Origin: Zootoca vivipara
Lineage: Eukaryota
DNA: 64,000 nt
Direction: 5' to 3'
NCBI RefSeq assembly: GCF_963506605.1
Contig: NC_083279.1
Coordinates: 70,618,001-70,682,000, forward strand
The first letter of the stretch is position 1; the number at the start of each line of letters is the position of its first letter. This document shows positions 18,905 to 64,000 of this stretch, piece by piece. Made by a program: the position numbers and the translations under genes. The notes under the pieces are model-generated. The model made no database searches. It saw nothing but the letters and a program-made list of their open reading frames with translations, and was not told where the DNA came from.

Positions 18905-19125
18905 ACAGGTAGGTAGCCATGTTGGTCTGACGTAGTCAAAACAAAATGTAAAAAAATTCCTTCCAGTAGCACCTTAGAGACCAACTAAGTTTATCATAGG
19001 TATGAGCTTTCGTGTGCATGCACACTTCTTCAGAAGAAGTATCAGAAGAAGTGTGCATGCACACGAAAGCACATATCTATGACAAACTTAGTTGGTCTCT
19101 AAGGTGCTACTGGAAGGATTTTTTT
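18905..19125. mobile_element. Penelope-like element terminal repeats in inverted arrangement, carrying minimal hammerhead motifs
   Basis: ~80-bp inverted arms (ccttccagtagcaccttagagaccaactaag / cttagttggtctctaaggtgctactggaagg); CTGAAGA-A-GTGTGCATGCACAC-GAAAGCTC core on the minus strand at 19004-19033. Confidence 0.7.
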
Positions 19126-20038
19126 ATTATTTTTTCACTTTATGCTGTTATTTGGTTTCAGATCAAGAAAACCTTGATTCACAGCTTACCTGGAAACACC
19201 ACCAATGGGATGTAAAAACTGGTTCAACTGTTGTGCATTAGTTAAAACCACATACACGGCACTTCTCAAAAGTCATTAAAGTAAGACAAGACATATATTT
19301 CTGCATGTGTCCAACCATAAAACACCTCTGCTTTACAGTGCCATCCTAAAGCTGTCTACTCAGAAGTACTGAATTCAGTGGGGCTCATTTCCAGACAAAT
19401 GGGGTTAGGATTGCAGCCTATTCATCTTTCCAATCTGGTAAGGAACCAATCCTTGATGCCTGAAGGTTTTCCTTTTCAGTTTTCTTGTCTTCCCCAGTGT
19501 GATAATGCCATCTCTTAGCCATTGCTGAACACTAGATATGACAAACTCCACTTGATCTATTAAGGCAACTTTTGTGTTTCTTTGTACTGTTCTCCAGGAG
19601 CATGTGAAGGAAACAGTCACGTTTATGAAGGTGTAGTGGAGGAAAGGACCTATCTCAAATGGATAGCGTCAGTGGGTGGAATTAAAGAGAAAACAAGTAG
19701 GAAGAGGATCCTTTAAGGAATCCCGTATCACTTCAAGAAGCAGAGTTTATCATTCATGTTGTGAGTAGCCTCCCTTGTCTACTTCTAATTTCCTTTTCAT
19801 TTTGACCAGTTTCCTAACTGAGCAGCCAGTCGGGCACAAGGTGGCCTTAACCCTACCCTGAAGGGCAAAACACATATATTTGACATATGCACACAAATTC
19901 TAATACTGTTAAGACAAGACTTCAGGTATTATTTTTTACGATGTCCTTGGACTAAAACGTTGAAGGCCATTTTGCTTTCCTTTCAAAAGGCCCTGTATTG
20001 TCCCTAGTGGTTCCGTCTGTTCCTTGTTGGGAGAAATT

Positions 20039-25439
<5,401 letters not shown>

Positions 25440-25599
25440 TGTCGGAGCGTCCTGTGTTGGAGCAGCCAGGACATGCTGGACACCTGAAAAAGAAGATATA
25501 CTATAGATATATATTCTCTGCCAATGCAGGTGGAGACTTCCTGGCAGATTTTTCACATTCCGTGTCTGTCCTATTCTCTTCAGGAATGCTGCATATATA

Positions 25600-26145
25600 C
25601 CATATTGGCCCAAAGATAAGTCACACTTTTTTTTCTCCCAAGCTGATATTTGCGACCTTTCGATATTGCTGCTGAAACAGCTGCCCACAAAGGCCGTCAG
25701 GGGTGCAGGACAAGGGTGCCTGTCCCAACCGTGGTTCCCAAGCCTTCCCCGAACCACCGGAAAGAAGGGGGAAGGCCACCAGCAAAGCGGTGGGGCTTCC
25801 CCACCAGGAAGCAGCCCAGGAGCACGAGGAAATGGTGCACAGCCCGCATACCGCTCCCAAGTCTCCCCTGAGCTGCTGTAAGGAAGGGGGAAGGCCGCCA
25901 GCAAAGCAGTTACTGTATTCGGCAGCGGACGACCGCATGGGCTTCAGTGGTGTGTGCTTGTTTGGGACAGGTGCTTGTTGACCCCACTTTTGATTCTTCC
26001 CCCACCCTCCCTGGGCAAGCCTCGTGTGTGTTCCTCGTTGTGTGATTGCGCTTCATTGGGCGTCTGCCTTTCGGAATCCCCCTCCCCCTCCAATTTTAAG
26101 GGTGCGGCTTATATTTGAGTGTGGCTTATATTCGGGCCGATGCGG
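25600..26145. mobile_element. Tc1/mariner-type MITE with GC-rich interior
   Basis: TA-flanked imperfect TIR ccatattggcccaaagataag / cttatattcgggccgatgcgg. Confidence 0.65.
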
Positions 26146-32832: not shown

Positions 32833-35800
32833 ATGATGCCCGTATTCAAAAGCAGCCGGAGAGATTTCACTTTCGGGCCGTGGAAGCTGACGGCCGCTCG
32901 GACCCACATCATCAAGTCGTCGGAGTCCGAGAGGTGCGAGGCGGGAGGCGGGGATGCTAGGGAACACTGTCGCCAGAGCCTCCGCTTCTGTGTTGGCCAA
33001 GCCCTTCAGGTTGCAGCGGGCCAATTCGGATGGCCGGCGGCTTTTATTGATGAGTTTCAATGAAAACAAGCCCGGAAATCCTCCTGGGCGGCTGAAACGT
33101 AAAGTGACCACCCCCGACCGACAAGCCTTTTCCATTTTCCTAAAAATCCCCCCTGATCCCAAATGTGCAGAAAGTAAATGCTTTGCAGGTGGGGGGGGGA
33201 TGCTTTTAAGGTTTCTGAACTGGCATGCTGTTTTAAGTAATCAAGTTATAAGGTTTCTGCCAGACGACTAAGTCCTCTGATCAATCAGATCATATACACT
33301 TCACTAGTTATTTATAAGTGATATGTTTGTAGTTTACTTTCTTGCTTTCTAAGGGCCGCTTCGCCTGCTGCTACATTTGTGGCAAATCCTCTTGTTAAAT
33401 GCTAATGTGGAAATGACCCGACAAGCATTTGTTGTGCCCATGTGCTCTGAAGGTATTGTGGTAAATTGCGACTTCCAGTGAATTAACCTCTTGTGGTCTA
33501 TCTGGGGACTTATGAGACAGACCAAAAATGAAAGGAACATACATGTTTGGGGAACGTTAGACTCTCCAGTGCTAATTTCATTTTAAATAAGCACAGCTGA
33601 TTCAATGTTACTGTATTTGGAATTAGATGTGGCATGTTGTAATATTCTTCAGAACAAATTATGCCTCTGTTTTAAATTATGTAGTTAGTGTGAAATTGTT
33701 CCAAAGTGACATAACTTTTTTGTTTCCATGCAGAATTGCTGAAGAACTACACATCCCTTGTGTTCCAGAAATGATGTTTGGAGACAATGTCTTAAGAATT
33801 CAGCATGAATCTCTCTTTGGGATAGAGTTCAATGCAACCGATGCTTTAAGATGTGTAAATAACACTCAAGGCATGGTTAAAGTTGCCTGTGCAGAGGAGT
33901 GGCAAGAAAGCAGGTAATAAGATATAAGATTAATCTAATCTAATATGACAATACGTTCAGCTACTTTGGAGCAATAGCTTAGATTTTTTTACTTTTTATG
34001 TGACCCACTTGAGATGTAATCTGGATAAATGCTTAATGCATGTCACTTTCCCCCTTAACATAAATATCATATTATTGTACATTTTCTCTTTCCCTCGAGT
34101 CATGTTTTTTGAGATTGTGATGTAAGGGAACCACCCACTAACAGTGTCTCATATGCTTATTACTTCTTGAGCCCACAATTTTAGTTATGATGAGATAGGT
34201 TTCTGACATTTCGGCTTGCTAATACAGATGCGCTAGCCAACAACTTTGAGCAAAAAACTTGAGCAAAATTATATGATTTCTGATCTAGAATAAACAAAAC
34301 TGATATTGTACAGCTGATAATGTTGTGTCAATCTTCAACATCTCTAGGAATTTGCAAATATACAGGTGACATTACCATAGCCTCTATAAAAAACTGCATC
34401 TATCTGTAGAGATCCTTTCGTTCTGAAACTGACATGCTACATAGATGTGTATCTTTTCCCTTGAGGTCTGAGCCTGAGCACACAAAGGAAATTGTTAAAC
34501 CATATGACTGGACCTATACAACAGATTACAAAGGAACTCTTCTAGGTGATACGTTAAAGTTAAAGGTATGTTCTTAAATCTGTTCCCAGAGCCTAGGGCT
34601 TGCTCATCAGAAGGTCGGCGGTTCGAATCCTTGCGACGGGGTGAGCTCCCATTGCTCAGTCCCAGCTCCTTCCAACCTACTGTAGCAGTTCGAAAGCACG
34701 TCAAAGTGCAAGTAGATAAATAGGTACCACTCCACGCGGGAAGGTAAACTGCTGCTCTGGTTCGCCAGAAGCGGCTTAGTCATGCTGGCCACATGACCTG
34801 GAAGCTGTACACTGGCTCCCTTGGCCAATAACGCGAGATGAGCGCCACAACCCCAGAGTCGGTCACGACTGGACCTAATGCTCAGGGGTCCCTTTACTTT
34901 GTAGTACTAAGCAGTTAACAATGTCTGAAGAGCACTCTTATAAAAAAACATAACTTTTAAATTATTTTGCCTCCTCCAGGTTTCTCCCACAACAGAACAT
35001 ATAGATACAGAGAAACTAAAAGCCAGGGAACAGATTATGTTCTTTGAGGAAATACTGCTGTTTGAAGATGAACTTCATGATCATGGAGTTTCAAGCCTGA
35101 GTGTAAAAATAGTGAGTTCGGTCACTTTGTACATGTTATATCTTACAGTAGGAAATGTCTTTAGAGTTTGACTGAAGGAAAAAATGAAGAAGTGTAGTGC
35201 CCAAACTTACATTTCTTTCTCTGTGATAAAGATATTCCTTTAAGATGCCAGCAATTCCCCGCCCCAAGGCCAACAGAAGCTCAGTATTATATTGGTTTGT
35301 GTACAGTACTTGTAAATTGCTTAAAAGCCTATTTTGACATTAAGCAATATAATAAAAAATAACCAGTAATGATGGAGTGGATGCAGTTTCCACCCCAACT
35401 TTTGCTTTGCTTAAGACTTTGAGACAAGAAGGATCTAGCTTATGAGGTTCCATTAAAAGGACAAGATGATTATCTTGTAAAGGCTATTCAGATTCAATTG
35501 GAGTTCTGTACTGATATTAACTTGATACTAACTTGTAGTTGGCACTTTATTATTTTTGTGCAATCTGAGATGCCGTCTGAAGATTTAAATCTGAGTTTCT
35601 GGTAATAATTACTTTGTAACAATTTATATTCTGTAACACCAAAGTTAACATTTGTGATTGGTAAGCATTTTTTTGGAAAGACTTTGTTTTAAAACGGAGT
35701 ACAGGCCAGACATCTTAGTTAAGCTTTACTCTTGCATAATTTTTGCATTTTTAGAGGATAAATATCCACAAGAAAGTATTTTAGTTGAACAGTGGAAAAA

Positions 35801-37871
35801 GAGCTACACACTGAAGTTTTTATTAGGTCTGTAAGAGCAAAATATTGTAGATGTGTGTAAATTATTTTTCCTGTTTTTCACAGAGGGTAATGCCTTCAAG
35901 CTTCTTTGTGCTCTTGAGATTTTTCCTGCGAGTTGATGGTGTGCTTATCAGAATGAATGATACAAGGATTTATCATGAGGTAAGGAAATACTAATATGCT
36001 TATTTTGTTCTAAAGACCATAAAATGGTTAATATTTAGAAATGAATGTCATATGTTGTAATTTGTATGTTTATTATTATTATTTATATTGTCTAACCCAG
36101 GGGTCGGCCAAACCTTTTATCCACGGGCCAGTCCACTGTCCCTCAGACCTTGTGGCGAGCTTGAGAAGCGGCACGGGGGGGGGGGAATCTGGAAGAATAG
36201 GCGAGGGGGGCAAGTAGGCCTCCCCACCCCCACCCTCTGCACTTACCTTCCCTGGGGCTACTTGCCGCCGCCGCCGCCACCACCGCTGCTGCTTCTCGTG
36301 GGTAGGCAGAGCGAGCTCATCCACTCCACTCTGGCCCACAGGAGCACCAGGGCGGTGGCGGTGGCAGAGGGAAGATGAGCAACGCGAAAGGGCTGGCTCC
36401 AGAGAGGGGCTGCTTAAAATGGCGCTCAGCCAGCTCAGTCCAGCCTCCTTCCTCCTCTAGGCAGGGCAGGGAGAAGCCAGGAGGAGGGAGGGAGGTGGCG
36501 CAGCTGCCGCAGTTTGTGTGAGGGGGGGGAATGGAATGGCGCAGGGGAAAAATATGGTGCAGCCCAAACGAACAGAATCCCCACCCTGATCCACGGACAG
36601 TCTACGGGCCAGATCCTGAAGGCAATTGGGCCTGATCCAGCCTGCGGACCTTAGTTTGCCGACCCCTAGTCTAGCCAAAGCCATTACAAAAGTTATATAT
36701 ATTTATAGCTCCTTAGCATTATCGTGAAAGGTGCAGGAAGATGGCTTCCTATTAGTAATTGTCCAAATAGTTTGAGTAGGTTCCTGGAGTCTTAAGAAGA
36801 CTAAGTACAGACTTCTCTGCACAATTCTTGTCCCCCTAGAACTGCGCACCATTAGTAGATTTATGCAAGGGAATTTGGGGGTGGGGGCAGTTGCCCTGGA
36901 GTAACCATAATCTCTGGTTTCCCAGCTTTCTTTTTTTAAAAAGAGTACGAGTAAGTTCCTAGCATTTGTAAATCCTGTGATATGAAGCAAAATGTGCAGT
37001 CCTTTTTTTGGGGGGGGGAAACGACTATCTTGTTCTCCCCCCCCCAAAAAAATACTGCAAATTACATAGCAACTGGTTTGGCTGACACGGCACCAGTTGG
37101 CTTATCTCATATGTGGGGTGATTTGTGCCCATGACTGGAATTAACCTCTTCCCCGTGACCAGTCCCTCCAACATGTCTGTCTGTAGAATCTTACATTATT
37201 TTATGCAATTACATTTCAGCTGTTTTCTTTCCTACTAGGCTGATAAACACTACATGTTACGGGAATACACCTCGAGGGAAAGCAAAATATCAAGCTTAAA
37301 GGTATTAACATTTTAAGCAAGAGCGTCTTTCTCTTGTCAGTGTTGTTAACTTCTTCATGCAAATTACTTTTTGATAGGGCACTGGCAGATGCTACCTTTC
37401 ATGAGTATCTACAAGGTTTTATTACCAGGCAAATGAAATTTAAAAATTATTTCGTGTAGTAAGACCTTTTTATTATTAATTTTTGTTTTTTACTGAGCTT
37501 TAGTCTCCAGGGTAATGCATGTTTTCACTACTTGGACATGTTTCTCAAGCTGCCTATTTATGGGAGGGAGACTCACTTTGAAGCAGAAATTTTGTAGTGT
37601 TAATATGTGTAAAAGTTTTATAAACAATATGAATAACTCATTCTAATTCAAGATTAACAGTCTCCCTTTTAACTCTGTATGGATATGTTTTCTCTTTGGC
37701 TGGGCAATGTATAATTCTTTCTCTTTTGGTTTTAAGCATGTTCCTCCACCCCTGTTCACGGATCCTAATGAGGTTGCTCAGTATTTATCTGTCAAGGAGA
37801 ACATATGTGAAAAGTTGGAGTTCCCCGAGAATTTGCATCCTGAATCTGAAGCAGCACCAGAAGGCACTTAA
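32833..37871 (+). CDS. TIPRL: TIP41-like protein (TOR signalling / PP2A regulator), 268 aa
   Basis: Exons 32833-32933, 33734-33913 ([14 protein letters not shown]), 34466-34565 ([15 protein letters not shown]), 34980-35111 ([10 protein letters not shown]), 35884-35979 ([17 protein letters not shown]), 37239-37301, 37737-37871. Total 807 nt, in phase. Confidence 0.96.
34588..34900 (+). mobile_element. Sauria SINE
   Basis: ctagggcttgctcatcagaaggtcggcggttcgaatcc...ggggtccctttac; homologous to 26303-26617. Confidence 0.85.
36098..36668. mobile_element. hAT MITE
   Basis: TIR caggggtcggc / gccgaccccta; 8-bp TSD gtctaacc / gtctagcc. Confidence 0.8.
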
Positions 37872-41023: not shown

Positions 41024-41444
41024 TGTGAGGGACAGGGGATACCGGGAGGTCCCTCCCATCTTAAGTACCAGCTCATCGCCAAGCGCTGGGGAAAGCAGGG
41101 AGAGTTCCGCCTCCAGCGGAGACTCAGGAAGTGGTGTCCGAGGCTCAGGCAAGGTAGCGGAGCCCATGCCCAAGGTGGGACAGGAAGGGGGGAGCAAGGG
41201 GGGAAGGCTGATCCCGCCGACCCCGGAATTGCGCAAGAAACGTCGTGGGAAGAGGTTGGGTCTTCCCAAGCTTCTTTGCTGGAGGAAAACGCGCCAACCT
41301 CCATTCGGAGGTACTGACACCTGACTGACAACATGTATATAGATCGCTCCGAGCACTGTAAACAATCAGCACTTAATAAAAGCCTAAAAGGACTATGCTG
41401 TGAGGAGTCGTTACTCTAGAGTAGCCGCATCAGCATCTCTGACA
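41024..41444 (+). mobile_element. Solo LTR (421 bp) of a subfamily related to the Gypsy element at 58311
   Basis: TGTGAG...TGACA ends; perfect 5-bp TSD GAATG (41019-41023 and 41445-41449); colinear with LTR 58311-58738; AATAAA at ~41375. Confidence 0.92.
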
Positions 41445-42973: not shown

Positions 42974-53833
<10,860 letters not shown>

Positions 53834-58310: not shown

Positions 58311-58738
58311 TGTCACAGTGGCCGGAGTGGACTACTTCAGAGTAACGACGCTACGCAGCTCTGCATTTTATTCTTTTATTGGTGCTGCGTATTTACAGTG
58401 CTCAAGTCATTGCTATTTACACGGATCGATGTTGTCAGTCGGTTTCAGAACCTCCTAATGGCTTTTGGCGCGTCTTTCTCCAACACAAAAGCTTTGGCAG
58501 ACCCATCCTCTTGCCCCTCCTCTTCCTGCGTAATTCTGGAGTTGGAGGGATGGGTCTTCCCCCCTTGCTTGCCCCTTCCTGTCCCACCTGGGACCCTGGC
58601 TCCTCTACCTTGCCTGAGCCTCGGACACGACTTCCTGCTTCCCCACTGGAATCGGAACTCTCCCTGCTTTCCCCTTTGCTCGGGGACGGGCTTGAACTCA
58701 GGAGGGGAGGGACTTCGCGATATCCCCTGTCCCTCACA
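58311..58738 (-). repeat. 3' LTR (428 bp)
   Basis: Minus-strand TGTGAG...GTGACA; adjacent PPT GGGAGGGGGGTGGA at 58752-58739; tandem AATAAA on the minus strand at ~58367-58380. Confidence 0.93.
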
Positions 58739-61700
58739 TCCACCCCCCTCCCAAGCTCTCCTTCACCCCTCCCCAGGCCCCCCCCATGTGTCGGTGACGA
58801 CTGGAAGCCTAAGAACTCAGTGCTCTCCGAGCCCGTTGGTGTGAATACCTCCCCCCAGTCCTGCGAGCCCCCCCCTTCCGCCTGGGCGGACGGGAATCCC
58901 AAAAAGTCCGTGGCGTCAGAGCTGGTGGGGTTAAAAACGTTCTGCCAATCTGCTCCTTCCTCTGACTGGGTGGATCTCGGTGACACCCATACCTCATCCT
59001 CTGGTTCCTCAAACTCCGCTTCCCAGCGCCATGGTGAGCTGCTCTCCCGTGCCTCCTCCTCCTCCCCCTCCCTTTCCATGTGCCAGGGCTTGGGTCTGTG
59101 GGGAAAGAGGGCGTGAAATTCTTCCACCAAGAATTCCTCCTGTATCTGAGTGGCTGGGACCCATTCATTCTGGGACGGTGGAGCATCCTCCCATGCCATG
59201 AGGTACTCCAGTCCCCCCACCCCCCACCTTGAATCCAGGATGGCCGTGGCCTCATTGAGTTGCTCCCTGCCTTCCCTCTCCCCCCCTCCCTCGGGGGTTT
59301 GTTCGCTGTCTCGGAGCCTGCTGCTTTCCCTGTACGGCGACAGCAGCGATCTATGAAACACTGGATGCACCCTCATGTCCTCTGGCAGTGCCAGCCTGTA
59401 TGCCACCGGGTTTACCTGTTGCGTGACCGTGAAGGGGCCCAGCCTTTTGGGTGCCAGCTTTTTGCACCTCCCTCTGGTGGGAAGGCCCTCCGAGGACAAC
59501 CACACCTTGTCCCCCACCCTGATGACCTCCCCTTGTCGCCTGTGGCGATCTGCCCCCTTTTTGTACGCTTCCTTGGCCCTCTCCAAGTGTTCTCTGAGCT
59601 GCTGGTGCACCGTCTCCAGTTCCTCTGCCCAATCCTCAGCCTGTGGGCCCTCCTCCTCCTCCTCCTCCCTCTCCCTCTCTGGGAAAGATCTGAGGTCGCG
59701 CCCGTAATTGGCCTTAAAGGGCGACACCCCTGTGGAGACGTGCACCGCATTGTTGTAGGCAAATTCTGCCAGTGGCAGGCGATCCACCCAGTCCGTTTGC
59801 CTCTGGCTGACGTAACATCTCAGGTACTGCTGCAGAATGGCGTTGACCCGCTCCGCCTGTCCATTGGTCTGCGGGTGCCGAGCCGTCGACAAGCTGACCT
59901 CCACCTGCAGGAGGTTCATGAGCCGCCGCCAGAACCTGGAAACAAATTGGCGGCCACGATCCGAAATAACCCTTAAAGGTAATCCATGCAGTCTGAAAAT
60001 GTGATCAACAAACAGTTTGGCTGTCTCTTCTGCCGAGACTGCCCTGGCACACGGTATAAAGTGACACATTTTGGACATAAGGTCCACCACCACCAACACT
60101 GCAGTCTTACCCCTGGACGAAGGCAGATCTGTGATGAAGTCCATGGACACCACTTCCCACGGCCTGTGTGGTGTGGCTAAGGGCTCCAGCAACCCTGGTG
60201 GCGCTGCTCTGACCACCTTCGCCCGCTGGCAGGTGGTACAGCCCCTTACATAGTCTCGAACATCTTCCCGCACCCCTGGCCACCAGAAGTGTCTCATGAC
60301 TAGGTGAGCGGTTTTGTCCCTTCCAAAATGCCCCGCTGTAGGGTTGTCGTGCATCTGCTTGAGGACCGTACGTCGAAGCTGGGTGGTGGGTAGGTACAGC
60401 GCACCCTTGTAGAAAAGCAGCCCTCTGCGTTCTGCAAAGTCTTTTGCCTGCTCCCTCCCCCCTCTCAGTTCTCTGAAGATGCGGTTGGCAAATTCATCCG
60501 CTGCCGTCAGTGCTGTGAGTTCTGCCTCGCTCACCACAGCTGCTCCGCAGGACCATGCCGACGGGGGGAAAATGTGCCTTGGGGCTGGTGGCGCCTCCTC
60601 CTCCATGTACTCTGGCTTGCGGGAGAGGGCATCCGCCCTGACGTTCTGCTCCCCCGGGATGTAGTGGATGGAGAAGTTGAAGTTCGAGAAGAACTCTGCC
60701 CACCGTATCTGCCGCTGGTTGAGCACCCTGGCAGTTCTCCAGAACTCCAGGTTCTTGTGGTCTGTGCACACCTGGATGGGGTGCTTCGCGCCCACCAGGA
60801 AGTGTCGCCAGTGCTGGAACGCAGCGTAGATCGCAAGAAGTTCCCTATCAAACACTGTGTAGTTGCGTTCAGGCTGTGTCAGCTTCCTGGAGAAGAAGGC
60901 ACAGGGTCTCCACTCCCTGTTGGCGTCCAGTTGCAACAAAATTGCGCCCACAGCTTTTTCAGAAGCATCTGTCTCAATGCGTAGGGGCGCGTCCTGCACC
61001 ACATGGAACAGGTTTTGGTCTGAGGCGAACACTCTCTTGAGGCTTTCGAACGCTGCTTGCGCCTCTGGTGTCCACTTGAACTTCTGCTTGCCTCTCAGGC
61101 AGTCCGTGATGGGAGCCGTAACGCGAGAGAAGTTCTTGATGAACTTCCTGTAGAAGTTAGCGAAGCCTAGTAGGCGTTGGGCATCTTTGCGCGTCCTGGG
61201 GCTGTGCCAGTCCAGGATGGCCTGCACCTTGTCCTTGTCCATCGCCAGCCCCTTGTCTGACAGCTTGTAGCCCAGGAAGTCCACCTCTTTGGTGTGAAAC
61301 TTGCACTTCTCCAGCTTCACATACAGGTGGTGCTCCTTCAGGCGTTGCAACACCTCTCTGACATCTTTCACATGCTGCACTGGGTCATTCGAGTAGATAA
61401 GGATGTCATCTAGGAAGACCAAGCATTTCCTGAAGAGGAGGGACCCCAGGACGTGGTGCATGAAGGCCTGGAAGCATGCTGAGCCCCCTTGCAAACCGAA
61501 GGGCATCACCAGATATTCAAAAGAGCCCAGAGGCGTGAACATCGTGGTTTTCCATTCATCTCCTTCCCGGATCCTGATCAAGTTGTACGCCCCCCTTAGG
61601 TCCAGCTTGGTGAAAATCTTGCCCCTGCGTGCCGCTGTCAGGAGATCATCCACTCTGGGCATGGGGAAAGCCACGGGCTCTGTCACCGAATTCAGCCGTC

Positions 61701-62562
61701 TAAAGTCCACCACAAGACGGCGCTGTTGCGTGTCTTTCTTGTCCACCCAGAAGACCGGGCTGCCCCCTGCTGCCTTGCTTTCCCTTATGAACCCCCGCTT
61801 GAGGTTCTTGTCGATGAAAGCGCGCAGATCCTCCAGCTCCTGGTCTGACATGGCGTACAGCTTGGCTGGGGGTATCGTCGCCCCTGGCACCAGGTTGATC
61901 TGGCAGTCAAAAGGCCTGTGCGGGGGTAGGTGGTCGGACTCCGCTTCGCTGAAGACCTCCTGCAGGTCCCAGTACTGCTTGGGTATTGCCTCACCCCCTT
62001 TGATATGCATGGTGGCCACCGTGGCTATCGGAGGCCCCTCCCCTGGTTGGTGCTGCATGCAATGTTCCAGACAAAAGTCTGACCCAAACGTGATGCACCT
62101 CTGGTGCCAACTGATGGAGGGGTCGTGGCGCGCCAGCCAGCTCATGCCCAAGACGATGGGGGGGTCTGAGATGGTGGTGACGTTGAACGCCAGTGTCTCT
62201 GAGTGCCTTCCCACCGTCATTCTCATGGGGGGGGTTTGATGTGTGATGGCCCCTCCCAGCAGTTCCCTGCCGTCAATGGTTGCTACGTGCAGAGGAAAAT
62301 CCAACTGCAAAAGCTGGATTTGGTGCTCTTCTGCAAAGCTTCTCGAGAAGAAGTTGGCGGACGCCCCACTGTCAATTAAGGCGAGGACCGTCAGGGGATA
62401 GCCATTTGGGAGCGTTAGCGTCACTTCTAGAACCACTCCTGCTCTGGGAGGGGTGGGCTGGCTCTGCACCTCTCTGTGCGGGTGGGCGGGCTGGGGCTGT
62501 TGTCTGCTGACTGTGCCTGGCTGCTGCCCCTTGTCTCCTGCAGCCAGGCTTTCCCGTTTCCC
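58435..62562 (-). CDS. pol: Pol (protease-RT-RNase H-integrase-chromodomain plus long C-terminal tail), reached by -1 frameshift
   Basis: ALIDSGA (protease), LDLRGAY / MPFGL / FLDD (RT), TDAS...RELLA...TDHKNL...ADALSR (RNase H), HHCC, D-D-E, GPF motif, chromodomain; no stop over >1340 codons. Confidence 0.95.
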   Translation of the reverse strand, partial: GKRESLAAGDKGQQPGTVSRQQPQPAHPHREVQSQPTPPRAGVVLEVTLTLPNGYPLTVLALIDSGASANFFSRSFAEEHQIQLLQLDFPLHVATIDGRELLGGAITHQTPPMRMTVGRHSETLAFNVTTISDPPIVLGMSWLARHDPSISWHQRCITFGSDFCLEHCMQHQPGEGPPIATVATMHIKGGEAIPKQYWDLQEVFSEAESDHLPPHRPFDCQINLVPGATIPPAKLYAMSDQELEDLRAFIDKNLKRGFIRESKAAGGSPVFWVDKKDTQQRRLVVDFRRLNSVTEPVAFPMPRVDDLLTAARRGKIFTKLDLRGAYNLIRIREGDEWKTTMFTPLGSFEYLVMPFGLQGGSACFQAFMHHVLGSLLFRKCLVFLDDILIYSNDPVQHVKDVREVLQRLKEHHLYVKLEKCKFHTKEVDFLGYKLSDKGLAMDKDKVQAILDWHSPRTRKDAQRLLGFANFYRKFIKNFSRVTAPITDCLRGKQKFKWTPEAQAAFESLKRVFASDQNLFHVVQDAPLRIETDASEKAVGAILLQLDANREWRPCAFFSRKLTQPERNYTVFDRELLAIYAAFQHWRHFLVGAKHPIQVCTDHKNLEFWRTARVLNQRQIRWAEFFSNFNFSIHYIPGEQNVRADALSRKPEYMEEEAPPAPRHIFPPSAWSCGAAVVSEAELTALTAADEFANRIFRELRGGREQAKDFAERRGLLFYKGALYLPTTQLRRTVLKQMHDNPTAGHFGRDKTAHLVMRHFWWPGVREDVRDYVRGCTTCQRAKVVRAAPPGLLEPLATPHRPWEVVSMDFITDLPSSRGKTAVLVVVDLMSKMCHFIPCARAVSAEETAKLFVDHIFRLHGLPLRVISDRGRQFVSRFWRRLMNLLQVEVSLSTARHPQTNGQAERVNAILQQYLRCYVSQRQTDWVDRLPLAEFAYNNAVHVSTGVSPFKANYGRDLRSFPEREREEEEEEGPQAEDWAEELETVHQQLREHLERAKEAYKKGADRHRRQGEVIRVGDKVWLSSEGLPTRGRCKKLAPKRLGPFTVTQQVNPVAYRLALPEDMRVHPVFHRSLLSPYRESSRLRDSEQTPEGGGEREGREQLNEATAILDSRWGVGGLEYLMAWEDAPPSQNEWVPATQIQEEFLVEEFHALFPHRPKPWHMEREGEEEEARESSSPWRWEAEFEEPEDEVWVSPRSTQSEEGADWQNVFNPTSSDATDFLGFPSAQAEGGGSQDWGEVFTPTGSESTEFLGFQSSPTHGGGLGRGEGELGRGVDVRDRGYREVPPLLSSSPSPSKGESRESSDSSGEAGSRVRGSGKVEEPGSQVGQEGASKGGRPIPPTPELRRKRRGKRMGLPKLLCWRKTRQKPLGGSETD

Positions 62563-63653
62563 TGCTGTGGTGCTGCGTCAGTGGGGGAGGGCACCACCGT
62601 TCCCGCCTTTCCTTGCCACTCCCTGCGATGTGGGCAGTCTCTGACGAGATGCTGGGGTGAGTTGCAGAGAAAGCAATTCCCGCCCCTTCCCTCCTTGCGT
62701 CTTGGCGCCGCTGGGGTTTGAAAAGCCCGCGCGCGCGCGCTATCAATCTGCATGGGCTCCTGGTCCTGGCTGGCTCCAGGCGTGGCCTGAAAGGGTTGTT
62801 GAGGGAGTGGCTTCTCCTGCGACCGTGGGAACCAAGCCCGCTTTGCGCGCGTCGCTTGCTTGTCGTTCCACCGGGATTCCTGCCTCACCCCCACCGCCAG
62901 AGCTGCTTTGCTCAGCTGATCCATAGTACTGGGCTTTGGACCTCTCGAGAGTTCATCCTTCACCTCCTCGCTCAAACCCAAGTAAAACGCAGCTTGCATG
63001 GGAGGCGAATCCAAAACCCACCCCAGTCTGTGCACCAGCATGGTGAATTTCGCCCAATATGCGCGAACTGTCATATTTCCTTGGCGTAAATTATGCAGTT
63101 CCTCCTTAGTCTGGTCCAAATGACTATCGGACGAATACATCGTCCTCAAACCTTCTAGAAATTGTTGGACATTTTTCATGCAAGGATTCTTGGTTGCGAT
63201 TAATGGTCTTAGCCACTCCCTGGCTGCTCCGGTGAGATGTTCCACAATAAACGCTACTCTGTGCTCATCATCGGGGAACTCATTCTGGTGCAGCTCAAGA
63301 GCATACACGATCTCAGTCTCAAAGCCCTGAAACTCCTTCGGGTCTCCATTGAACTTGCTTACAAGGGTCCCTGCTCTCCTTCCTGGCAGCACTTGGACTT
63401 GGGGAGCCCCTCCCGCCTTGTTTTTCTCTGCATCCAGCTTGTTTTGGAGGTCTACCGCCACCGCCCTTAAATGCTGCTCTTTTTCCTGGAGCTCTCTCAC
63501 CTGTTCCGCAAGTTGTAGCCGGTCGTCCTGGACCTTCTTAGTCTCCTCTTTAGCTGCCTTCAATTCTCCCTGCGCCTGCAGCGACAGCTGTTGCAGTTCT
63601 AGCTGGGCTTGCTCAGCGATCTGCCGCCACTTCTCCGCCTCGGACACGCTCAT
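62427..63653 (-). CDS. gag: Gag (coiled coil, capsid, CCHC zinc knuckle), 408 aa
   Basis: ATG at 63653 (MSVSEAEKW); LRQGNMTVRAY capsid motif; CFLCNSPQHLVRDC knuckle. Confidence 0.93.
   Translation of the reverse strand: MSVSEAEKWRQIAEQAQLELQQLSLQAQGELKAAKEETKKVQDDRLQLAEQVRELQEKEQHLRAVAVDLQNKLDAEKNKAGGAPQVQVLPGRRAGTLVSKFNGDPKEFQGFETEIVYALELHQNEFPDDEHRVAFIVEHLTGAAREWLRPLIATKNPCMKNVQQFLEGLRTMYSSDSHLDQTKEELHNLRQGNMTVRAYWAKFTMLVHRLGWVLDSPPMQAAFYLGLSEEVKDELSRGPKPSTMDQLSKAALAVGVRQESRWNDKQATRAKRAWFPRSQEKPLPQQPFQATPGASQDQEPMQIDSARARAFQTPAAPRRKEGRGGNCFLCNSPQHLVRDCPHRREWQGKAGTVVPSPTDAAPQQGNGKAWLQETRGSSQAQSADNSPSPPTRTERCRASPPLPEQEWF
62493..62562 (-). promoter_or_regulatory. Programmed -1 ribosomal frameshift signal
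   Basis: G_GGA_AAC at 62562-62556 in the gag frame; 6-nt spacer; 10-bp stem GCCTGGCTGC/GCAGCCAGGC; loop GGGGC can pair with downstream GCCCC; the -1 frame opens into pol. Confidence 0.88.
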
Positions 63654-63682: not shown

Positions 63683-63693
63683 ATTAGGAGGTT
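63683..63693 (-). promoter_or_regulatory. Primer binding site, self-priming type
   Basis: AACCTCCTAAT 2 nt after the 5' LTR; no TGG start; exact complement of LTR 63844-63834. Confidence 0.75.
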
Positions 63694-63695
63694 GC

Positions 63696-64000
63696 TGTCA
63701 CAGTGGCCGGAGTGGACTACTTCAGAGTAACGACGCTACGCAGCTCTGCATTTTATTCTTTTATTGGTGCTGCGTATTTACAGTGCTCAAGTCATTGCTA
63801 TTTACACGGATCGATGTTGTCAGTCGGTTTCAGAACCTCCTAATGGCTTTTGGCGCGTCTTTCTCCAACACAAAAGCTTTGGCAGACCCATCCTCTTGCC
63901 CCTCCTCTTCCTGCGTAATTCTGGAGTTGGAGGGATGGGTCTTCCCCCCTTGCTTGCCCCTTCCTGTCCCACCTGGGACCCTGGCTCCTCTACCTTGCCT
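63696..64000 (-). repeat. 5' LTR (partial)
   Basis: The 305 visible nt appear identical to 58311-58615. Confidence 0.95.

Follow-up and report, generated by a model that had tools for sequence, protein, structure and literature searches.

The window analysed here (the whole stretch of 64,000 nt, on contig C4 of a 1.44-Gb genome) most likely comes from a lacertid lizard and contains host gene exons, a solo LTR and an LTR retrotransposon on the minus strand:

23443–25943, minus strand: host gene for a 7TM receptor, presumably GPR161-like by synteny
33771–35991, plus strand: host gene, TIP41/TIPRL exons
41024–41444, plus strand: solo LTR of a related family (B), 421 bp, target-site duplication (TSD) GAATG
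49038–49211, plus strand: host gene, Got1/SFT2 exon
58311–58738, minus strand: 3' LTR of the element, 428 bp, TG...CA, without differences from the 5' LTR; TSD CATGT
58435–62577, minus strand: pol ORF, 1380 aa between stops, comprising protease, RT, RNase H, integrase, SH3-like GPY/F domain, chromodomain and tail
62427–63653, minus strand: gag ORF from the first ATG, overlapped by pol in the -1 frame
62556–62562, minus strand: GGGAAAC heptamer in the gag/pol overlap, which we take to be the slippery site
63696–64000, minus strand: 5' LTR, continuing 123 bp beyond the window

A 92-nt inverted repeat with a 7-nt spacer (18943–19133) is probably a MITE. Elsewhere in the host genome, a LEDGF family model finds an exon whose matched part shares 97% identity with Zootoca vivipara HDGFL2, and integrases related to that of the element carry the name of Podarcis muralis.

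The element and family A

The element is a young Tf1/sushi-type Ty3/Gypsy chromovirus. Gag is followed by protease, RT, RNase H and integrase in that order, the LTRs have TG...CA termini, and a TSD flanks the insertion. A chromodomain lies at the C-terminal end of the integrase (PF00385, E=3.8e-6, above the cut-off, with a match to HP1), the SH3 domain of pol is Tf2-like according to the domain search, and a self-primer at the predicted 5' end of the transcript is complementary to the primer binding site (PBS). An LTR search returned 468 candidates, of which the best 40 of 468 were scored; all were ~100% identical (family A), and this family is therefore very young. The ORF runs ~300 nt into the LTR in 11 of 24 full-length loci, and three of the 24 have an unbroken 1380-aa Pol. 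Open pol frames of 674–684 aa recur in many young A copies, suggesting either a common break or an assembly error hot spot. Judged by eye, GGA replaces the last three bases of the 5' target-site copy in 4/15 young A elements (L003/L004, L009/L010, L015/L016, L021/L022; also L075 and L084). These are the bases preceding the LTR at the polypurine tract (PPT) junction, and they are possibly a U3-end overhang retained in gap repair.

The LTR-encoded tail of Pol

As described in the original prediction, pol crosses the PPT and ends 304 nt inside the 428-bp 3' LTR (1 nt, 100 codons and a stop). The parts of this region, all on the minus strand, are:

58435–58737: Pol/integrase tail within the LTR, 100 codons and a stop (Pol aa 1281–1380)
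58480–58557: Pro-rich, basic tail block with LLCW, conserved; candidate NLS or chromatin-binding segment
58696–58737: first tail block, codons 1–14 with YREVPPLL, conserved; overlaps the U3 attachment site
58739–58752: PPT and junction bases, read in frame; the segment least constrained as protein

Some 215 aa follow the chromodomain, 100 of them within the LTR. The tail is Ser-rich and then basic, as had been noted, with 13 K/R among its last 42 residues. Searches of Pfam families and PDB structures gave no credible match to the tail (an endothiapepsin match from the PDB search was judged to be chance), a word-based search found no homologs of Pol 1200–1379, and Atlas yielded nothing usable. 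An AlphaFold model of the last 279 aa, calculated without an alignment, has a pLDDT of 51 and places helices only in the first 56 residues, which suggests that this part of Pol is disordered. The tail might conceivably be read in terms of RVxF, SH3-ligand, MAPK-docking or CENP-C-like patterns.

The proposal that the tail is a coding sequence under selection was borne out by comparison with other families. For family B there were 2735 LTR candidates (best 40 of 2735 scored), and further subfamilies (C) were found with a codon-degenerate pattern, which gave 397 matches and none in the control. The Pol frame of the tail has no stop in 11/11 representative ungapped copies, and its dN/dS (0.13–0.47) is the lowest of the six frames in 12/12 pairs. 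Conservation of the LPKLLCWRKT block in C is circular, since C copies were found via that pattern; with the block removed, dN/dS is 0.11–0.43, one close pair giving 0.70. Among full-length copies, dN/dS of the tail is 0.16–0.31 in nine well-diverged pairs and 0.37–0.54 in three close C–C pairs. In the well-diverged copies the acidic linker gives 0.14–0.23 (0.14–0.24 over full-length copies as a whole) and the enzyme domains mostly 0.01–0.13; the PPT segment of full-length copies gives 0.39–1.05. Frameshifting indels within the coding part occur in 0/30 A LTRs, in 9/29 B LTRs (one locus with an A-type neighbour left out, and a last-codon gap common to all B copies uncounted) and in 1/30 of the pattern-found LTRs, two others of which have in-frame deletions. 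Most lie in G runs; where both LTRs of a B element could be compared (three elements), the two LTRs have none of them in common.

The solo LTR at 41024–41444 had been reported to keep the same open frame, and it does so without gaps over 99 codons, with 79/99 residues identical to family A. The reported abundance of synonymous changes was likewise confirmed: between A and B, the 59 mismatches within 298 nt are distributed 16/8/35 over codon positions 1/2/3. For the first 295 nt the chi-square p is 6e-5, and the counts of synonymous (Sd 32/74) and nonsynonymous (Nd 27/220) differences give a Fisher p of 6e-8. CpG decay is not the cause of the third-position excess, because CpG transitions make up no more than 5 of the 35 changes, and transversions 17. 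The further claim, that sequence diverges more after the stop codon, stands for gaps between A and B (6 openings, vs 0 in the coding part) and fails for their identity (0.76, vs 0.80 in the coding part). In the other five of six pairs tested, identity after the stop is equal to or above that of the coding part; over all six the ranges are 0.76–0.85 after and 0.73–0.84 before it.

The frame seen in the solo LTR is one kept from the pol gene of the parent family; it is not selected in place, because private changes include stops (five in the LTR tails of B and C together), and it decays. Private changes in C LTRs look neutral (synonymous share 0.31, p=0.29; 27/29 copies), and those in B LTRs are not cleanly so (0.42, p=0.008; 22/30 copies). 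Solo LTRs are thus relics of the parent family's pol, with a private-change test that is only partly clean. If U3 is fully coding, thousands of them record the evolution of the protein.

The tail can also be followed to greater depth. A profile of nine tails, run against 1.84 billion representatives, recovered one relative, P0041 (E=7e-5), with the same order of chromodomain, two FxGF motifs, VDV junction, Pro-rich and basic block, and LLCW. Through P0041, older families of solo LTRs in this genome were reached, as were P0042–P0044. The chromodomain, FxGF motif(s), VDV junction and basic-LLCW-basic end are all kept in P0041 and P0044, and the Arg-rich stretch and Trp of the tail are kept across all families seen. 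In older solo LTRs (393–463 bp; 16 of 20 resolved loci had a matching TSD) the offset from LTR start to LLCW is 78–97 codons, and it is in phase in 11 of the 16 with a matching TSD (p=0.004). The tail frame persists in these older families, which differ by whole codons.

Self-priming and predicted LTR anatomy

In Tf1/sushi self-priming the primer is described as the 5' end of the transcript (10.1101/2022.12.06.519325), so that the start of transcription in the lizard element is predicted at LTR nt 280 (codon 93/94). The corresponding features, again on the minus strand, are:

58363–58459: predicted R, LTR nt 280 to ~376, with the last 8 codons and stop and the conserved CACTGTAAATA
58372 and 58380: starts of AATAAA in predicted R
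58449–58459: 11-nt self-primer, 3' LTR copy, inside codons 94–97
58460–58738: predicted U3 (LTR nt 1–279), coding throughout, placed by the self-primer position
63683–63693: PBS, starting 2 nt past the 5' LTR and able to pair with the self-primer
63834–63844: 5' LTR copy of the self-primer, where the transcript is predicted to begin

The PBS is complementary to LTR nt 280–290 at 11/11 positions in 21/24 elements, in five covarying versions; in the remaining three the pairing is 5–8 nt. An older family has a sixth version, with 10/11 positions paired. An exact search for its PBS gave no matches, and one that allowed CpG decay gave six, vs one in the control, from three independent loci. As to the flanking duplexes of the Tf1/sushi pretzel structure, minimum free energy folds show the primer paired with the PBS, plus an adjacent stem, in three of four elements folded, and the element of the window folds otherwise. 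A start at nt 280 would make all of U3 coding and place the stop within R; on the evidence of primer pairing, the overlap between coding sequence and U3 is thus larger than originally claimed.

A fully coding U3 raises the question of where the promoter is positioned in such an LTR. Synonymous sites in the 42 nt leading up to the predicted start are almost saturated (pS 0.64–0.77), which argues against a sequence-specific core promoter just upstream of it. Since pS is lower in the Ser/Gly spacer (0.30–0.48, vs 0.60–0.77 in the basic block) than before the start, promoter elements may lie in this spacer or downstream of the predicted start. The sequence TGTAAATA at LTR nt 342 was considered as a TATA box and dropped, as the self-primer puts it past the predicted start. 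One of three RNA runs has 21 read starts at LTR nt 376, 17 nt past the first AATAAA start, and read depth falls at this position in two of the three; both fit a poly(A) site. At nt 280 none of the three runs shows an accumulation of read 5' ends; the reads come mostly from host transcripts crossing LTRs. The motif TGTA[AC]ATA occurs twice in predicted R of A and C (58390–58421; LTR nt 318 and 342) and is conserved across all aligned families; we assume a resemblance to CFIm UGUA or Pumilio elements.

FxGF motifs and the proposed role of the tail

The original prediction looked for function inside the LTR, where the basic block stands as a candidate NLS or chromatin-binding segment, and missed the strongest functional clue, a pair of FxGF motifs located just outside it (all minus strand):

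58804–58860: TIM/IBM-like motif 2 (W..VF, acidic S/T linker, FLGF)
58894–58950: TIM/IBM-like motif 1
59011–59031: third repeat of the helix part, FxGF absent in the family of the window
59113–59250: chromodomain, first and third cage aromatics absent

The stretch from chromodomain to PPT holds two repeats, each made up of W..[IV]F, an acidic S/T linker of 9 residues and FLGF, and both have the hydrophobic helix, acidic S/T linker and FxGF of the TIM/IBM pattern. A TIM is described as a helix, an acidic linker of 8–16 residues with CK2-phosphorylated S/T, and FxGF, the last being reported in all known LEDGF and HRP2 partners, often in series (PMC9987994). The published core is D/ExExFxGF (PMC8022399), and the JIL-1 motif is given as DFxGFDE (PMC6877644). 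At the position two residues ahead of the first F, where the consensus has E, both motifs of the window have T; P0041 and P0043 each contain one motif with the exact core. Both helix-acidic-FxGF motifs are retained, despite synonymous changes, at 11/11 loci examined (families A–C). An older family copy (L147) has three full motifs, and distant relatives have one to three, P0042 having FxGF without the full pattern. The first 1165 residues of Pol contain no FxGF. Two plain FxGF arise in 0.06% of linker shuffles, a lenient test in that the helix-linker-FxGF pattern was drawn after the sequence had been seen. The two motifs fit the LEDGF/HDGFL2-binding pattern. A complex prediction for motif 1 and a lacertid HDGFL2 TND, made without alignments and with a tool that is unproven for peptides, speaks neither for nor against binding (score 0.01).

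In the chromodomain, aromatics 1 and 3 of the cage, compared with HP1, are replaced by N and A. Type I chromodomains, which read methyl-lysine, are defined by three aromatic cage residues, and loss of the first and third is the type II pattern (PMC3059260). By its sequence, then, this chromodomain probably no longer reads methyl-lysine.

The reading preferred here, to which a probability of about 0.6 is given, is that the tail is a selected C-terminus of Pol, a disordered string of motifs for nuclear entry and chromatin tethering. It would be encoded across the PPT, predicted U3 and the start of predicted R, and, if transcription begins at LTR nt 280, translation would be confined to the copy in the 3' LTR. 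As a chromatin tether, the FxGF motifs would dock on the TND of LEDGF or HDGFL2 and stand in for the chromodomain, which probably no longer reads methyl-lysine. A Ser-rich spacer, observed to be flexible in length, would separate them from the basic-LLCW-basic block, by composition a putative NLS or nucleosome-binding segment. The overlap probably arose as pol extended through the PPT. A more specific version, which we hold tentatively and at slightly less than even odds, is that the tandem motifs mimic TND ligands and hijack LEDGF/HDGFL2, the whole of U3 being overprinted with a further module for import and anchoring. This would be convergence on the lentiviral tether by way of a linear motif, with promoter region, self-primer and protein in one sequence. 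What is most surprising in this proposal, and least proven, is the mimicry by the FxGF motifs.

Basic, disordered segments bind nucleic acid, and the tail could be a real protein that acts before integration, in particle assembly or RNA/cDNA binding, or as an accessory protein released by the protease. The selection data are silent on when the tail acts; even so, we regard this as rather unlikely, as the tail follows motifs that fit docking to nuclear transcription factors and the C-terminal integrase tails of CRM are described as carrying targeting motifs (PMC3059260). Less probable again is that the basic-LLCW block serves to anchor the protein to nucleosomes or centromeres, like the plant CR motif or an arginine-anchor peptide. 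The block lies at the same genomic position as the CR motif (PMC3059260), and its Arg-rich stretch and Trp are common to all families seen (above). Against this, neither Pfam nor PDB gave a match, and the lizard copies look dispersed when compared with CRM, the 21 young copies among the matches listed on contig C1 showing no departure from an even spread (KS p=0.18). The Arg/Trp spacing of the block may be CENP-C-like.

Two other explanations are very improbable. The antisense frame that shares third codon positions with Pol is open in 9/11 copies with dN/dS of 0.25–0.54, as might be expected if its product were selected; its dN/dS is above that of the Pol frame in 12/12 pairs, however, two of the 11 copies have a stop, no ATG is common to all, and RNA reads are mostly from one strand, which would be the element's sense strand in a library made by the usual stranded protocol. 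An antisense protein is already largely refuted. Constraint on promoter or RNA, with a frame open by chance in GC-rich DNA and no protein function, would account for the nucleotide-level constraint on the self-primer (codons 94–98) and PPT, and for the lower pS of the spacer than of the basic block. The third-position excess, the low dN/dS and the whole-codon length differences among families contradict this explanation, which is refuted for codons 1–93.

Coding sequence in U3 is familiar from HIV nef and MMTV sag, which, unlike this Pol-end tail, are separate accessory genes expressed from spliced RNAs. As had been stated from the outset for CRM elements, read-through into the LTR is known in plants; the accounts cited describe pol extending into the 3' LTR in CRM group A and in some Reina elements (Bingo1–4 and 7) (PMC3059260, PMC3605345). 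The LTR-encoded part of CRM is described as a putative targeting domain (PMC3059260). The lizard element differs from CRM group A, as portrayed there, in having a chromodomain upstream, where CRM has the CR motif in its place, in priming itself rather than using tRNA-Met, and in its vertebrate host; its tail shows no similarity to the CR motif, and all of predicted U3 is coding. With Tf1 and sushi-ichi it shares the chromodomain integrase, the 11-nt self-primer and PBS, and LTR ends like TGTYANR...CNTNACA, and it adds to their described organisation a tail of ~215 aa after the chromodomain and a self-primer inside codons (10.1101/2022.12.06.519325, PMC3601003). The motifs of MLL1, JPO2, IWS1 and JIL-1 are likewise reported as disordered, with a hydrophobic helix, acidic S/T linker and serial FxGF (PMC9987994, PMC8022399, PMC6877644); those of the lizard element are known from sequence, are carried by a retrotransposon, and have W at the helix start and T at -2. 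Lentiviral integrase is tethered by LEDGF, and the lizard integrase would use the same host domain toward transcribed chromatin, with a candidate linear motif where HIV integrase has a folded, prearranged LEDGF site (PMC9987994, PMC10854676). For the Ty3 intasome, the description cited goes no further than a likeness in topology to tethering by LEDGF (10.1101/2021.07.27.453949).

Within the literature searched, which does not extend to repeat databases, no vertebrate Tf1/sushi element with an LTR-encoded tail was found, nor any retrotransposon integrase with FxGF motifs; an earlier mention of either is possible. Judged by the sources cited, the principle of read-through into the LTR is already known, and the vertebrate, self-priming setting and the FxGF motifs appear to be new. 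Integration targeting by vertebrate Ty3/Gypsy elements is little studied, and this family, which is young and numerous, carries FxGF motifs and has a chromodomain that is probably blunted, offers a direct test bed for the question of whether retrotransposons use the lentiviral H3K36me3 readers by a different molecular route.

Further variation was seen among the copies of these families. Between L061 and L064, dS is 0.38 in RT and ~1.4 in the SH3 domain and chromodomain, which suggests mosaic elements formed by recombination. Five of the 40 family-B matches listed lie on the small contig C18 (9.3 Mb, <1% of the genome), possibly a W-like or heterochromatic chromosome. Elements also occur in tandem arrays, with a spacing of 5297 bp in the older family (L151–L154, C2 at ~123.43 Mb) and of 5385 bp at ~54.78 Mb on C13.
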